A stretch of DNA of 64,000 nt, taken from positions 32,001-96,000 of the IMG/VR virus record IMGVR_UViG_3300014913_000007; one strand, written 5' to 3'. Shown here piece after piece: positions 16,489-61,095 of this stretch. Within the stretch, counting starts at the first letter, position 1. Every line of letters begins with the position of its first letter. Both the position numbers and the translations under genes were made by a program. This stretch comes from a virus. The notes under the pieces were generated by a model. That model had not been told where the DNA came from. It was given only the letters and a program-made list of their open reading frames with translations, and ran no database searches.

Positions 16489-17507
16489 TGACAGTGACTA
16501 TATTAGAGGTTGGAGATCCAGCTATTCCTGTAGTAAATGCGGATTACCTAGATCCAGTAACCGACACTGAAATGACCTTCCCAACTCAAGGTATAGTTGG
16601 TACAGTATTAAAAAGTGAAACTTATGGTAATTATGTAGAAAGTGATGAACCTATCTATCAATATCTATTAACTTTTGACCCTCCCGTCGAGACGACAGCA
16701 GATGTAGTCACAGCCGACGATGATGGAATAGAAACTTCTAACCAGCAGCTATTTACAGCATCTGAAATATGGTTTTCAGATGTGGACTTAGGATTATCGG
16801 ATGAAGTAGACCCTTTCGAATTGGATAGTCAGGCTATTCAAAATACAATAGATGAAGGTAAACAGAGGTCCACAGCTAATTTATCTACAGTTCAAAGTAT
16901 AAGTGCATCTGTAGGGCAGGAGGATGTAGTAAATACTTCTGATTATGGAGGGCCAGATATATTGGCCTCTTCAGATACATTAACTGCCTTAGTTGGAACA
17001 TTAGATAATATTGAGGATGTAAATGGGAAAACAAGTGATGAAATAGACAACCAAGCTTACAAATATGAGAAAGAAGCTAGCAGTGTTGCAGACAACTCCG
17101 ATATCTTTGCTGAGTATGTAGATAATTTATACTCACAGAGGCAAGTGGAGCAAGAAAAGGAGGATGAGAGACATCGATATTCTGAGCAAGGTGCAGAACA
17201 GCAACAACAAGCAGACGTAGAAGATGCTCAAAACTCGAAGGAATATTATGATGCACACATAGACTTAGGACATTTGGAAAATCCTTTCACACTAACTGAA
17301 AATTTTGATGAGTATAACCTATCAGAGGAGGCTGAAGAGACTCTACTAGATTCCATTGAGGAAGTAGTTAATAATCTAAATAGTAGCTTATTAGGACCCG
17401 ATGATCCAGCTCCTACACTTTTTACAATAGAAAGAACTACTAGCACTGTACAACCAGAACCAGAATCAACTAGTTACCCTACATCTCCAGAAGAAGCAGA
17501 AGAATAG
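16488..17507 (+). CDS. very acidic hypothetical protein
   Basis: 339-aa D/E-rich ORF coupled to the sigma gene. Confidence 0.7.
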   Translation: MTVTILEVGDPAIPVVNADYLDPVTDTEMTFPTQGIVGTVLKSETYGNYVESDEPIYQYLLTFDPPVETTADVVTADDDGIETSNQQLFTASEIWFSDVDLGLSDEVDPFELDSQAIQNTIDEGKQRSTANLSTVQSISASVGQEDVVNTSDYGGPDILASSDTLTALVGTLDNIEDVNGKTSDEIDNQAYKYEKEASSVADNSDIFAEYVDNLYSQRQVEQEKEDERHRYSEQGAEQQQQADVEDAQNSKEYYDAHIDLGHLENPFTLTENFDEYNLSEEAEETLLDSIEEVVNNLNSSLLGPDDPAPTLFTIERTTSTVQPEPESTSYPTSPEEAEE

Positions 17508-17529
17508 TCATTCTATTTTGTAAAAAAAA

Positions 17530-17558
17530 TTAAAGTTATACATAATAAATGTCGATAC
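17530..17558 (+). promoter_or_regulatory. sigma28/FliA-like promoter
   Basis: TAAA-N16-GTCGATAC; ATG 6 nt downstream. Confidence 0.6.
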
Positions 17559-17564
17559 TAACGT

Positions 17565-18536
17565 ATGGACATAATAAAGAACATACAAGTACCGACTGGA
17601 AACATACTTATAGTATCTGGAGATAAAGGAAACTTAGAATTCCTATCTATTGGGGATTACGGAAAAGAAGCCAATTTGAAGTGTGACGCTTTGGGACTAA
17701 CTAGGGAAATAGGTAAGGTCCAACACGTTGAAATGTTACCACTATCTGAAAAGTGGGTAATAACTGTGTCAACTCAATATGGTTGCTCGATGAACTGTAC
17801 ATTTTGTGATGTACCTAAGGTTGGTCCTGGTATAAATGTGACTCTCGATGATCTTATCCAACAAATATCACTAGGTTTAGGGCTACATCCTGAAGTGAAA
17901 AGTGGGAAAAGATTGAACGTTCACTATGCCAGGATGGGGGAACCTACCTTTAATCCTGAAGTTCTAAGATCAGCCTATGCATTACAACTATTACTAAAGG
18001 ATTTTGATACTGTTCACCCAGTTGTATCCACTATGATGCCCAAAAATAATAAATTCTTAAAGAAATTTCTAAATGAGTGGATGTATATAAAGAATGAAAT
18101 TTTTCAGGGGGAGGCTGGCCTACAGTTGAGTTTAAATAGTACCTGTGAGCAAGAAAGAAAACTAATGTTCTCTGGTAATTCTTTAAGTCTATCAGATATT
18201 TCAGATGTAGTTTCAGCTTATAGACCTAAAGGTAGAAAGATTACACTAAATTTTGCTGTTGCAGACTACACTATAGATCCGAGTGTACTATTGAAATATT
18301 TTGATCCTAAATACTTTATAATAAAACTTACACCTATGCATAAAACTCATACTGCCTTAAAGAACAGTATAAAAACTAATGGAGATTACACAACTTTTTA
18401 TCCATATAAACAACACGAAAAAACACTTAAGTCTGTTGGATATGATGTATTAGTATTTATAGCATCTGTAGAAGAGGACCTAGGTAGAATAACTTGTGGT
18501 AATGCTATACTATCAGGATCTACTCCAGATTACTAA
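17565..18536 (+). CDS. RlmN/Cfr-like radical SAM protein
   Basis: STQYGCSMNCTFC, MGEP, LQLSLNS, C-terminal CGN. Confidence 0.8.
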   Translation: MDIIKNIQVPTGNILIVSGDKGNLEFLSIGDYGKEANLKCDALGLTREIGKVQHVEMLPLSEKWVITVSTQYGCSMNCTFCDVPKVGPGINVTLDDLIQQISLGLGLHPEVKSGKRLNVHYARMGEPTFNPEVLRSAYALQLLLKDFDTVHPVVSTMMPKNNKFLKKFLNEWMYIKNEIFQGEAGLQLSLNSTCEQERKLMFSGNSLSLSDISDVVSAYRPKGRKITLNFAVADYTIDPSVLLKYFDPKYFIIKLTPMHKTHTALKNSIKTNGDYTTFYPYKQHEKTLKSVGYDVLVFIASVEEDLGRITCGNAILSGSTPDY

Positions 18537-43903: not shown

Positions 43904-43950
43904 TAAATTATTAATCAAACAATTTAGTTCGGGTAGAAGAAAGCAAATTT

Positions 43951-44025
43951 GGCGGGAAGGACGTTGGCTTCCAGTAGTGTCTCATAAGCATTATTACGCT
44001 GGTTCAATTCCAGCTTCCGCAACCA
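43951..44025 (+). tRNA. tRNA-Met(CAT), 1:72 mismatch (fMet/Ile2 identity uncertain)
   Basis: anticodon loop CTCATAA, TTCAATT T-loop, CCA. Confidence 0.75.
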
Positions 44026-44185: not shown

Positions 44186-44186
44186 T

Positions 44187-44258
44187 ACACTTCTAGTCTT
44201 GGGACAAAGGAAGCCTCCAAAACTTCTAAGCAGAGTTCGAATCTTTGGGAGTGTGCCA
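44187..44258 (+). tRNA. tRNA-Trp(CCA)
   Basis: loop CTCCAAA, TTCGAAT, G73 plus CCA; short D arm. Confidence 0.8.
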
Positions 44259-44259
44259 T

Positions 44260-44724: not shown

Positions 44725-45174
44725 ATGGATACCAAGTACTGTGATAAATGTAAGAACGACCTGCCAGTTGATACTTTCCAAAGACGTGGGAAAAACGGAT
44801 TACAGCCTTGGTGTAAGAACTGTCAAAAAGAGTATGATAGACAACGTTACATAGATAATAAAGAATACATCTGTAAGCAAAATAAAGACGGTAGAGAGCG
44901 TAGAAGAGAAAGAAGTAGAAACGAAGTAACAAGCTATCTATTAGAGCATCCTTGTGTTGATTGCGGTGAGAAAGATATAATAGTACTCAGCTTTGATCAT
45001 GTTAGAGGAGAAAAGGAATTTAACATATCAGATGCGATTAAGGATGGTATGAAGTGGGAGAGGATAGCGAAAGAAATAAAGAAGTGTAAAGTTAGATGCT
45101 TCAACTGTCACATGAGAAAGACTGCAAAACAGCAGGGCTGGTTCAAATACAACAAATCAAATAAGAAAAAATAA
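44725..45174 (+). CDS. HNH endonuclease inside tRNA array A
   Basis: CVDCG..FDHV..RCFNCH; N-terminal CxxC pairs. Confidence 0.85.
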   Translation: MDTKYCDKCKNDLPVDTFQRRGKNGLQPWCKNCQKEYDRQRYIDNKEYICKQNKDGRERRRERSRNEVTSYLLEHPCVDCGEKDIIVLSFDHVRGEKEFNISDAIKDGMKWERIAKEIKKCKVRCFNCHMRKTAKQQGWFKYNKSNKKK

Positions 45175-58074: not shown

Positions 58075-58410
58075 ATGAGTAGATCACGTAGAAAAAAACC
58101 TATCATCAGACACGGTGGTAGTGATAAGTGGTGGAGAAGGAACTACAATCGTAAACTAAGAAGAGCTAATAAGGTACTCTTACAGAAACAGAAGGAAGAT
58201 TTCCTACCTAAATTAGTTAGAGAAGTTAGTAATGTTTGGGATAGTAGTAGAGATTGTACTTTTAGATTTACTTATCTAAAGGATGGTAACTTATGTCATC
58301 TAAGTAACGTTGGATTCTGGGCTGATTTTTATGGAGTATCTATAGAAGAGTATATAGAGAAAGAAAAGAAAGAAGCTAAGGAGGAATACAACAAATGGAT
58401 GAGGAAGTAG
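58075..58410 (+). CDS. basic phage protein (MSRS.R..P type)
   Basis: GGAG RBS before ATG 58075. Confidence 0.6.
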   Translation: MSRSRRKKPIIRHGGSDKWWRRNYNRKLRRANKVLLQKQKEDFLPKLVREVSNVWDSSRDCTFRFTYLKDGNLCHLSNVGFWADFYGVSIEEYIEKEKKEAKEEYNKWMRK

Positions 58411-58556
58411 AGTACAAGAAAACTAACAGGGAGAAGGTACAGACTCCTAAGTTAGGTATATTCTATTGCACATGTGATAGAGCTTTAGTAGGAAAGGGGA
58501 GGAAGTGTAAGTTTTGCGGGACTAGAGATCCTGGTAAAACATTTAAAAAATAATAT

Positions 58557-58748: not shown

Positions 58749-59117
58749 ATGTCCAAACTTAAAGTCTGTAAACAATGTGGAAAAACTTTCCCCAAATCAG
58801 GTATGTACTTAGGTAAGTGAAGGAACTTCTGTAATAGGAGTTACTTTCTTTTATGCTCCTCAACTAGGTTGGCCAGACAGTATTTACTGGAGAAACATGG
58901 AAACAAGTGTTTTCAATGTGAAGTAACCGGATGGAATGGACGGCCAGGACCTGTAGTTTTAGATCATATAAATGGAAACCCTTATGATCATAGTTTAGAA
59001 AATATTAGATTGCTCTGTTGTAATTGTGATGCACAAACTAATACATATAAAAACAAAAATAAAGGTAAAGGCAGGCACACTAGGAGATTACGATACAAAC
59101 AAGGTAAAAGCTACTAA
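58749..59117 (+). pseudogene. HNH endonuclease with in-frame TGA
   Basis: ATG 58749 is in frame with the HNH part (LDHING..LCCNC); TGA at 58818-58820. Confidence 0.65.
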
Positions 59118-60321: not shown

Positions 60322-60350
60322 TTGACATTAATTTTTATTTGTACTATGAT
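60322..60350 (+). promoter_or_regulatory. promoter of tRNA array D
   Basis: TTGACA-N17-TATGAT. Confidence 0.75.
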
Positions 60351-60359
60351 CTATTTGTT

Positions 60360-60446
60360 ATGTTAATATCAACTCTAAAACATATACTATTCGATATAAA
60401 GCGGTTCCATAACCGCCATAAAAGACGCTTTGCGTCTACAATATAA
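60360..60446 (+). CDS. leader peptide D (MLISTLKHILFDIKRFHNRHKRRFASTI)
   Basis: K/H/R/D-rich, matching array D. Confidence 0.75.
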   Translation: MLISTLKHILFDIKRFHNRHKRRFASTI

Positions 60447-60494
60447 TCAAACAAACAATTCAATTAGGGTAGAAGTAATTAAGTAAATAAATTT

Positions 60495-60563
60495 GGCTGT
60501 ATAGGTTAATGGTAGACTAGGAGACTGTCGATCTCTTTGCCGGGTTCGATTCCCGTACAGCCG
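60495..60563 (+). tRNA. tRNA-Asp(GTC)
   Basis: loop CTGTCGA, G73; short T stem. Confidence 0.8.
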
Positions 60564-60570
60564 TTCTTTT

Positions 60571-60642
60571 AGGGAGATAGCTCAATGGTTGGAGCACTCG
60601 GCTCGTATCCGAATGGTTACGGGTTCAAGTCCGGCCTCCCTA
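60571..60642 (+). tRNA. degenerate tRNA, anticodon CGT (Thr) on an Ile/Met-like body
   Basis: loop CTCGTAT; mismatches in acceptor, anticodon and T stems. Confidence 0.5.
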
Positions 60643-60743
60643 CTTTTTAAAGTAAACTATTCTTTACATTATACCAACTTAATGTATAGAATACTAGACA
60701 TTATCTGCTATACTGTCTAAGATTCTATACATTATAGCATTTT

Positions 60744-60817
60744 GCTGCAGTAGTCTAACTGGATAGGCATCTCGCTTCTAACGAGACAATATGAAGGTTC
60801 GAGTCCTTCCTGCAGTG
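60744..60817 (+). tRNA. tRNA-Arg(TCT)
   Basis: loop CTTCTAA; no CCA. Confidence 0.9.
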
Positions 60818-60825
60818 CTTTATAT

Positions 60826-60899
60826 GGTGACCATAACTTAACTGGTTAAAGTGCCTGACTGTGAATCAGGTGATTCGGGTTCAAATCCCGATGGTCACA
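60826..60899 (+). tRNA. tRNA-His(GTG)
   Basis: loop CTGTGAA, encoded G-1; no CCA. Confidence 0.9.
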
Positions 60900-60905
60900 C
60901 CCTTT

Positions 60906-60981
60906 GCCCTGGTAGTATAATCAGATAAAACACTCAGCTACGAACTGAGAGATGAAGGTGCAAGTCCTTCCTAGGGTGCCA
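60906..60981 (+). tRNA. tRNA-Arg(ACG)
   Basis: loop CTACGAA, CCA. Confidence 0.85.
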
Positions 60982-60986
60982 ATTAT

Positions 60987-61057
60987 TCCCTCTTAATGTA
61001 ACGGTAGCATACCTGGCTTTTAACCAGTTTGTGGGAGTTCAAATCTCTCAGGGGGAA
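60987..61057 (+). tRNA. tRNA-Lys(TTT)
   Basis: loop CTTTTAA; no CCA. Confidence 0.85.
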
Positions 61058-61095
61058 CTTTTTCAATTTCTAAGTATTAACTAAGTGCTATACAC

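Follow-up and report, generated by a model that had tools for sequence, protein, structure and literature searches.

A codon-matched leader reading frame ahead of a phage tRNA array as a probable sensor of tRNA supply

Introduction

Why should a short open reading frame (ORF) stand between a promoter and the first gene of a phage transfer RNA (tRNA) array, and why should it be written largely in codons that the same array reads? The question is raised by an ORF that we refer to as leader D, which lies in a 64,000-nucleotide stretch of viral DNA (hereafter the window) comprising bases 32001-96000 of the 153,389-bp virus record IMGVR_UViG_3300014913_000007 (34% G+C), with 23 tRNA genes grouped in five clusters. 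We propose, with a probability of roughly 0.62, that leader D is a translated sensor of tRNA supply, and that each array has one such leader composed largely of the codons of that array. The sequence itself establishes the ORF and where it lies, the match of its codons to the array, its conservation, and the covariation of leader content with array content.

Phage tRNA genes are usually viewed as constitutive add-ons that serve codon usage, or as spares against tRNA-cleaving defences. If leader D acts as we propose, the phage measures the decoding of those very codons and tunes its tRNA supply array by array, and the logic of amino-acid operon attenuation has been carried over to the tRNA genes themselves. 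Our literature searches found no published account of codon-matched leaders before phage tRNA arrays.

Results and discussion

Leader D and the array behind it

The unit runs from the leader promoter through six tRNA genes, and its parts as far as the first tRNA, followed by the remaining tRNA genes, are given below in nucleotides (nt).

60322..60350, plus strand: promoter, TTGACA and TATGAT with a 17-nt spacer, agreeing with the consensus at 11 of 12 positions
60360..60446, plus strand: leader D ORF of 28 codons, ATG at 60360 and TAA at 60444-60446
60393..60428, plus strand: codon run DIKRFHNRHKRR, residues 12-23, overlapping hairpins H1 and H2
60401..60416, plus strand: hairpin H1, GCGGTT/AACCGC with loop CCAT, in the minimum-energy fold
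60423..60437, plus strand: hairpin H2, AGACGC/GCGTCT with loop TTT, in the minimum-energy fold
60435..60466, plus strand: G-free A/C-rich tract of 32 nt, spanning the stop codon
60467..60475, plus strand: array-entry motif GGGTAGAAG, 18 nt before tRNA-Asp
60494..60564, plus strand: tRNA-Asp (GTC)
60570..60643, plus strand: CGT-anticodon tRNA, decayed, its body probably Ile-like
60744..61058, plus strand: tRNA-Arg(TCT), tRNA-His(GTG), tRNA-Arg(ACG) and tRNA-Lys(TTT)

The distance from the leader stop codon to tRNA-Asp is 47 nt, and downstream tRNA-Asp and the CGT tRNA come first, separated by a 100-nt spacer from Arg(TCT), His, Arg(ACG) and Lys. An initial annotation, made from the sequence alone, had pointed to a basic leader ORF whose Arg codons are overlapped by two perfect hairpins, and all the elements that it listed are present in the sequence: K, H, D and R account for 11 of residues 7-23, Arg is encoded by CGG, CGC, AGA and CGC, and Ile by ATA at each of its four occurrences. 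Neither H1 nor H2 has a U run behind it.

The ATG lies 9 nt past the -10 hexamer, so that the predicted 5' untranslated region is only about 3 nt long, and no Shine-Dalgarno sequence is found ahead of it. In eight of ten leaders measured in this phage group the start codon follows the -10 hexamer at a distance of 6 or 9 nt, a count made before the leader of the relative L246 (see below), which also has the 9-nt spacing, was added. Leaders of this kind are predicted to be leaderless messenger RNAs (mRNAs). Mycobacterial small ORFs of the leaderless type have been described (PMC4633059).

Match between leader codons and array tRNAs

As a background for the codon match we used the 537 ATG-started ORFs of 20-50 codons in all six frames of the same genome, with codon-level scoring by simple wobble rules. 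Amino acids of the array account for 48% of the leader D residues against a background mean of 21% (empirical p ~0.009), and tRNAs of its own array decode 10 of its 27 codons (p ~0.011). Within the best run of 12 codons, eight are read by the array (p ~0.004), or nine if the CGT tRNA still read ATA. The L246 leader scores at the top of the background distribution, its own tRNAs reading 14 of 27 codons overall and 10 of 12 within the run, and of the tRNA species in that array only Arg(CCT) is without a run codon; the empirical p values for the two runs (8 of 12 in the window, 10 of 12 in L246) lie between 0.002 and 0.004. CGC and CGG make up 1% and 2% of the Arg codons in the long ORFs of the phage, and three of the four in leader D. 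The initial annotation had itself held the four ATA codons to be a weak point because ATA is common in this genome, and we agree: ATA accounts for 56% of the Ile codons of the phage, and its fourfold use in leader D is not significant.

Three further leaders of this genome (A, B and C) are each enriched for the set of their own array but not for that of array D. One alternative is a chance ORF in AT-rich intergenic DNA. Leader D by itself reaches a p of only ~0.01, and it was chosen by eye; however, the ORF is kept in four phages, and the same pattern is seen at every array of the group and again in an unrelated phage (both described below), so that we find a chance origin hardly credible.

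Leader D in related phages

Relatives of the window phage were found through contigs with homologs of two proteins encoded nearby. Three of these metagenome-derived contigs, L246, L113 and L032, have orthologs of leader D, and their flanking proteins are 70%, 71% and 67% identical, respectively, to those of the window phage. The L246 leader is near-identical to leader D and precedes a complete array of Asp, Asp, a CAT-tRNA, Arg(CCT), Arg(TCT), Lys(TTT), His, Arg(ACG) and Lys(CTT), and the more diverged copies in L113 and L032 lie directly 5' of tRNA-Asp. A promoter of the form TTGACA-17-TAT(A/T)(A/G)T stands ahead of all three.

The start codon (ATG, or GTG in L032) lies exactly 9 nt after the -10 hexamer in all four orthologs, with a purine at the expected transcription start site, and the distance from the start codon to the codon run is the same in each. 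The 5' half of the ORF in L113 and L032 differs by one insertion and one deletion, each of 3 nt, which offset one another and restore the frame, and on the coding strand the leader D frame is the sole frame open in the four orthologs. An antisense ORF at 60344-60463 was also considered and was rejected, as its frame is broken in L032.

Two segments are invariant in the four orthologs: AAGCGG and the 17-nt core CCGCCATAAAAGACGCT, the latter at its synonymous sites too. Invariance of the core is consistent with codon identity and the hairpins being constrained together. Within H1, four pairs are invariant and the fifth is U-A in the window and L246 and C-G in L113 and L032, a compensatory change; the sixth pair is U-G in L246. 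H2 is retained in all four, with one mismatch in L032, and loop lengths vary. Across the H1 and H2 pairing cells of the four orthologs 90% can pair, against 28-56% when the partners are slid, which, as only four sequences are available, amounts to modest covariation support for the hairpins. The amino-acid sequence of the N-terminal half of the ORF is under no visible selection, as would be expected of a leader peptide and equally of a non-coding RNA.

Leaders of other arrays and of an unrelated phage

We compared six leader types, A-D of this genome and E and F of L034, a more distant relative (60% flanking-protein identity) in which the tRNAs are grouped differently. The best-fitting array for each leader is its own, and the true leader-array pairing is the single best of the 720 possible. 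It is also the best of 40,320 when two leaders of the phage G001 (below) are included to make eight, this being a biased addition since those two were chosen for their match. The diagonal of the cross-matrix has z values of 2-6, and off-diagonal values are around zero or negative save where codon sets are homologous or overlap. Leader content follows array content in L246, L032 (A', C' and D'), L113 and L034 (E and F). In L032 the leaders of the A-type and C-type arrays are retained with matching composition. L034 has a leader rich in Ala, Tyr, His, Asn, Phe, Trp and Cys before His, Ala and Tyr tRNAs, and leader F, in which 11 of 12 consecutive codons are for Asn, Phe, Cys or Trp, stands ahead of an Asn-Trp-Phe-Asn-Cys array; the two L034 leaders are unrelated in sequence. 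Leader B of the window phage is followed by a long hairpin with a U-rich tail, and here a terminator switch is visible.

The same layout is found outside this group. G001 (IMGVR_UViG_3300034062_004313) is a 156-kb IMG/VR phage, fetched only for a distant similarity in ribonucleotide reductase; it is unrelated to the window phage and has promoters of the TAnnTTTG (Bacteroidota) type. Its two leaders are at the following positions.

L236 2488-2610 (G001:C1, about 106.5 kb): first G001 leader
L236 4136-4262 (G001:C1, about 108.1 kb): second G001 leader

A Leu/Ser run stands ahead of Leu-Leu-Ser-Ser tRNAs, and a run of Ile, Asn, Met, Val, Asp, Gly, Ala, Glu and Lys codons ahead of those same tRNAs. 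Both have a clear antiterminator/terminator pair, in which a terminator abuts the first tRNA and its 5' arm is able to pair with the end of the leader ORF. This is a textbook arrangement, and it makes a sensor function for the whole class of leaders much more likely. The same pipeline found no convincing leaders at the arrays of two other phages, G002 and G003.

These comparisons also bear on whether the product of leader D might itself be a functional small basic peptide, RNA-binding or ribosome-arresting. A KR..(x)RHKRR motif is indeed kept in the four orthologs, but the N-terminal half evolves freely, and the other leaders have different compositions (hydrophobic/Pro; Leu/Tyr/Glu; Gly/Thr; Asn/Phe/Cys/Trp), each of which mirrors its own array. 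We thus give little credence to a peptide with a function of its own, and return to leader D as a sensor read by the ribosome.

Some features of the other leaders may be recorded here. An element, TTTCGTATATTTGCT, is shared in front of both G001 leaders. Two small protein genes (window 58075-58553) intervene between leader C and its Gly and Thr tRNAs, and the layout recurs at L032 3511-3224 (minus strand), there with a 95-aa basic protein. Leader A holds Met and Trp codons despite the fact that the tRNA-like sequences with CAT or CCA anticodon loops (window 43946-44025 and 44186-44259; L032, minus strand, about 458-385) are called by neither ARAGORN nor Rfam; these are possibly decayed or unusual tRNAs.

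The interval between leader D and the first tRNA

The G-free tract at the leader D stop codon is short (32 nt) and A-rich, and it is followed directly by the G-rich motif GGGTAGAAG. Three exact copies of this motif occur in the 153-kb genome, two of which precede the first tRNA of arrays A and D, and the motif is kept in L246, L113 and L032. Together these elements form an entry module that consists of a G-free A/C-rich tract, GRGTAGAAG, and then a tRNA 8-20 nt on, present at the positions below.

Window, 60435-60475 and 43904-43939: entry module
L032, minus strand, about 6934, 4470 and 1185: entry module
L113, minus strand, about 969: entry module
L246, minus strand, about 3270: entry module

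G-free tracts of 21-59 nt precede the motif at all seven array entries examined, and in six of them the tract is at least 27 nt. Apart from array D the module is found at array A, at its L032 ortholog, and at an L032 sub-array that follows protein genes and has no leader. A different arrangement is seen at leader B, which has a switchable terminator, whereas leaders D and A have the G-free tract with GGGTAGAAG and no terminator. As leader D is without an intrinsic terminator, its readout must differ from that of leader B and G001, and as at least two arrays (A and D) use the tract plus motif with no intrinsic terminator, more than one readout exists.

Two candidate pairings in this interval were tried and rejected. 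A helix between the pyrimidine-rich 5' half of the ORF and GGGTAGAAG is present in the minimum-energy folds of the four orthologs, although its register varies and shuffled 5' halves do equally well, and pairing of the 3' arm of H2 (TCTAC) with GTAGA is absent in L113.

A proposed mechanism

A plausible course of events at leader D is as follows. A ribosome would load on the near-leaderless AUG and decode the Asp, Ile(ATA), Lys, Arg and His codons that are packed into the two small hairpins. The speed of its transit through the run would report a shortage of the tRNAs for those codons and would be coupled to the output of the array. A ribosome stalled late in the run would prevent the hairpins from closing and, positioned at the border of the G-free tract, would hinder the loading of Rho; a ribosome that finishes would leave the tract exposed, and transcription would then stop near GGGTAGAAG, before the first tRNA. 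We infer that leader D is translated by a leaderless route and that stalling raises tRNA output, the latter by analogy with amino-acid operon attenuators and with the terminator switches of G001 and leader B. The Rho-dependent step, which resembles that of tnaC, is the readout that we consider likeliest, though it is offered as a tentative suggestion, and RNA processing or a Nus-type antitermination site are possible alternative readouts.

The tRNAs for Asp, His, Arg and Lys are the commonest targets of anticodon nucleases: Lys for PrrC and RloC, Arg for enzymes of the colicin D type, and Asp and His for those of the colicin E5 type. It may be, then, that each array is under feedback control by a leaderless mini-ORF that samples the decoding of its codons, with leader D as a form lacking a terminator, and that leader D senses a host defence that cleaves tRNAs and switches on replacement tRNAs through a Rho or processing readout based on the G-free tract and GGGTAGAAG. 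We regard this extension as speculative and rather improbable.

Points against a sensor, and two structural alternatives

Several observations weigh against reading leader D as a translated sensor. With no Shine-Dalgarno sequence, translation of an mRNA with a 3-nt leader is an assumption, and substitutions between the window and L246 number 3, 4 and 3 by codon position, with two synonymous and six non-synonymous. There is thus no third-position bias, and the coding signature rests on the frame, the position of the start codon and the codon run only. As to the match, CGG and TTC in the leader D run are not read by the array, and GC-rich hairpins in an otherwise AT-rich leader would give Arg codons in one frame or another anyway, so that the match could in part be a by-product. 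As to the readout, a search of the plus strand for terminator-like sites gave none in 60322-60494 and none in the L246 leader, and folds constrained by a ribosome at the start of the run, at its end or at the stop codon show no switch in the four orthologs. G-free runs as long as the tract make up 4.7% of the strand, which makes this rut-like tract only moderately unusual, and a Rho readout would presuppose Rho in the host.

The terminator searches bear on whether leader D is a classical attenuator of the trp/his type with an intrinsic terminator, as leader B might lead one to expect: leader B shares the promoter-leader layout and has the long U-tailed hairpin, and the G001 terminators are clear. 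In leader D and the L246 leader, by contrast, there is no terminator, the folds of the four orthologs do not switch with ribosome position, the hairpins are not followed by U runs, and the helix of the 5' half with GGGTAGAAG does no better than shuffles. A classical attenuator is accordingly very improbable here. Of what the initial annotation had envisaged, a leader ORF matched to its array is borne out by the relatives and by leader-array covariation. Classical attenuation is not evident for leader D, for want of a U run and of a terminator/antiterminator pair.

A second structural alternative is that the leader is non-coding, with H1, H2, the tract and GGGTAGAAG forming a protein-binding, processing or nut/boxA-like module and the ORF arising as a by-product of the stems and an A-rich linker. 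The invariance of the core at synonymous sites and the compensatory pair in H1 would suit such a module, as would the lack of a Shine-Dalgarno sequence and of third-position bias and the occurrence of the tract and motif ahead of the L032 sub-array that has no leader ORF. Alignments of leader D (window and L246) and of both A-type leaders land on the boxA region of the Escherichia coli rrnH leader, and those of the L113 and L032 D leaders fall beside it or over its end. The similarity to rrnH is, however, not above that of shuffled controls (p 0.04-0.7), although the E. coli boxA may not be that of the host, and Rfam applied to the leader and array region returns tRNAs only, with nothing for the leader and no T-box match. 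A non-coding module would also fail to explain why the start codon keeps its place at the 5' end, why the frame is open in four orthologs and its 3-nt indels offset one another, and why five other leader types of unrelated sequence match their own arrays. For these reasons we consider a purely non-coding leader unlikely. The two are not exclusive, as such a module could be the readout of the sensor.

Comparison with known leaders

Taken as a translated sensor, leader D resembles the attenuators of enterobacterial amino-acid operons (hisL, thrL, ilvL, leuL, pheL and trpL), with which it shares a short ORF at the 5' end, a dense codon run that reports supply, and overlapping hairpins; ilvL and thrL also have runs for several amino acids, as in leader D. 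It differs from the hisL/trpL type in that tRNAs rather than biosynthetic enzymes lie downstream, in the five-amino-acid run that mirrors the array, and in the leaderless start with no Shine-Dalgarno sequence, no intrinsic terminator and no antiterminator. Rho-dependent attenuators with leader ORFs are known from tnaC of the tna operon, mgtL/mgtA and corL/corA. In the tnaC type, as in leader D, the stop codon is at the edge of an unstructured G-poor tract, and a ribosome held there could mask Rho loading, but the leader D tract is 32 nt long and A-rich rather than C-rich, and no inducer-specific arrest peptide would be expected.

The leaderless polycysteine short ORFs of mycobacteria are attenuators that respond to Cys. 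They too are mini-ORFs at or next to the 5' end with a run that senses supply, differing from leader D in the organism, in having a single-amino-acid run, and in having protein genes downstream. T-box riboswitches likewise sense tRNA status for genes of the translation apparatus, although they are made of RNA only, have one specifier codon and bind uncharged tRNA directly. Lastly, the nut sites (boxB, boxA and boxC) of rrn operons and lambda share with leader D the order of hairpins followed by an A/C-rich segment at the start of a stable-RNA operon, notwithstanding the failure of the rrnH comparison to exceed shuffled controls and with the same proviso about the boxA of the host.

The decayed tRNA and the spacer of array D

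The second tRNA of array D has a CGT anticodon, and the initial annotation had suggested that it might be a decayed Ile2 tRNA, one base removed from CAT. Comparison with the anticodon at the same position in the relatives favours this: the ortholog has CAT in L246, where it is 88% identical, and TAT (Ile) in L113. The CGT tRNA is 62-64% identical to the tRNA-Ile(GAT) of the phage and to the L113 TAT tRNA, 54% to a Met(CAT) tRNA, and 45% to the phage's own Thr(TGT). Its score is 41.9 bits (64.3 for the L246 ortholog), and three of its stems contain non-standard pairs. An AUA-reading Ile2 tRNA takes a CAT anticodon modified with lysidine, or TAT where lysidine is not needed, and the window copy has neither. 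We conclude that the CGT tRNA is, on these comparisons, a probable decaying descendant of an AUA-reading tRNA. It would then be a clean natural case of phage tRNA decay, from an AUA reader to a weakened CGT copy, with the leader retaining its ATA codons.

The 100-nt spacer that follows contains two overlapping features.

60680..60734, plus strand: long spacer hairpin before tRNA-Arg(TCT), kept in L246 (minus strand, about 2934-2870)
60663-60692, plus strand: promoter-like TTTACA-18-TAGAAT, overlapping the 5' arm of the spacer hairpin

The folded spacers have energies of -25.7 kcal/mol in the window and -17.6 kcal/mol in L246. The hairpin has no U run; it is a likely processing site and may be one of the RNase III type. 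The promoter-like sequence had been raised in the initial annotation as a possible separate promoter for the distal tRNAs, a role that we rejected, as it has no counterpart in L246, where the leader promoter is the only strong one of the unit. The hairpin is kept there instead, and on these two grounds the distal tRNAs probably belong to the transcription unit of the leader.

Genome setting and other observations

No cultured phage close to the window phage was found, nor was a close relative found in public viral collections. Protein searches of IMG/VR (with ribonucleotide reductase, two small neighbour proteins, a beta-helix alignment and a DUF7768 alignment) returned distant phages only, with no more than 48% identity and without these arrays. 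At the nucleotide level, a 15-mer from the leader D core scanned through IMG/VR gave 76 matches, all of them chance, and a 21-base pattern gave three in GTDB genomes, again all chance, in GC-rich metagenome-assembled genomes. A 30-base leader D pattern was also defined, consisting of AAGCGG, nine free bases and CGCCATAAAAGACGC.

Genes for a tRNA nucleotidyltransferase and a ribonucleotide reductase are also present in the window, and by our reading HNH-type ORFs lie among its tRNA genes. The order and content of the tRNA arrays are reshuffled from phage to phage, and ORFs of the homing-endonuclease type (GIY-YIG/NUMOD3, and HNH, one of them broken by a stop codon) lie between tRNA genes at insertion sites that differ among the relatives.

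L113, 210-866, minus strand: homing-endonuclease-type ORF
L032, about 1000-880, minus strand: homing-endonuclease-type ORF
Window, 44727-45170: homing-endonuclease-type ORF
Window, 58869-59117: homing-endonuclease-type ORF

A second contig from the sample of L032, L244, has no array. In L034, ARAGORN calls a tRNA with a four-base anticodon (CTTG) beside a tRNA-Ile(AAT) at 17427-17584 (minus strand), behind a large structured region. Finally, the ribonucleotide reductase of L032 (9088-12783) is 1231 aa long and contains an intein with a LAGLIDADG domain, whereas the window copy is 871 aa and has no intein.

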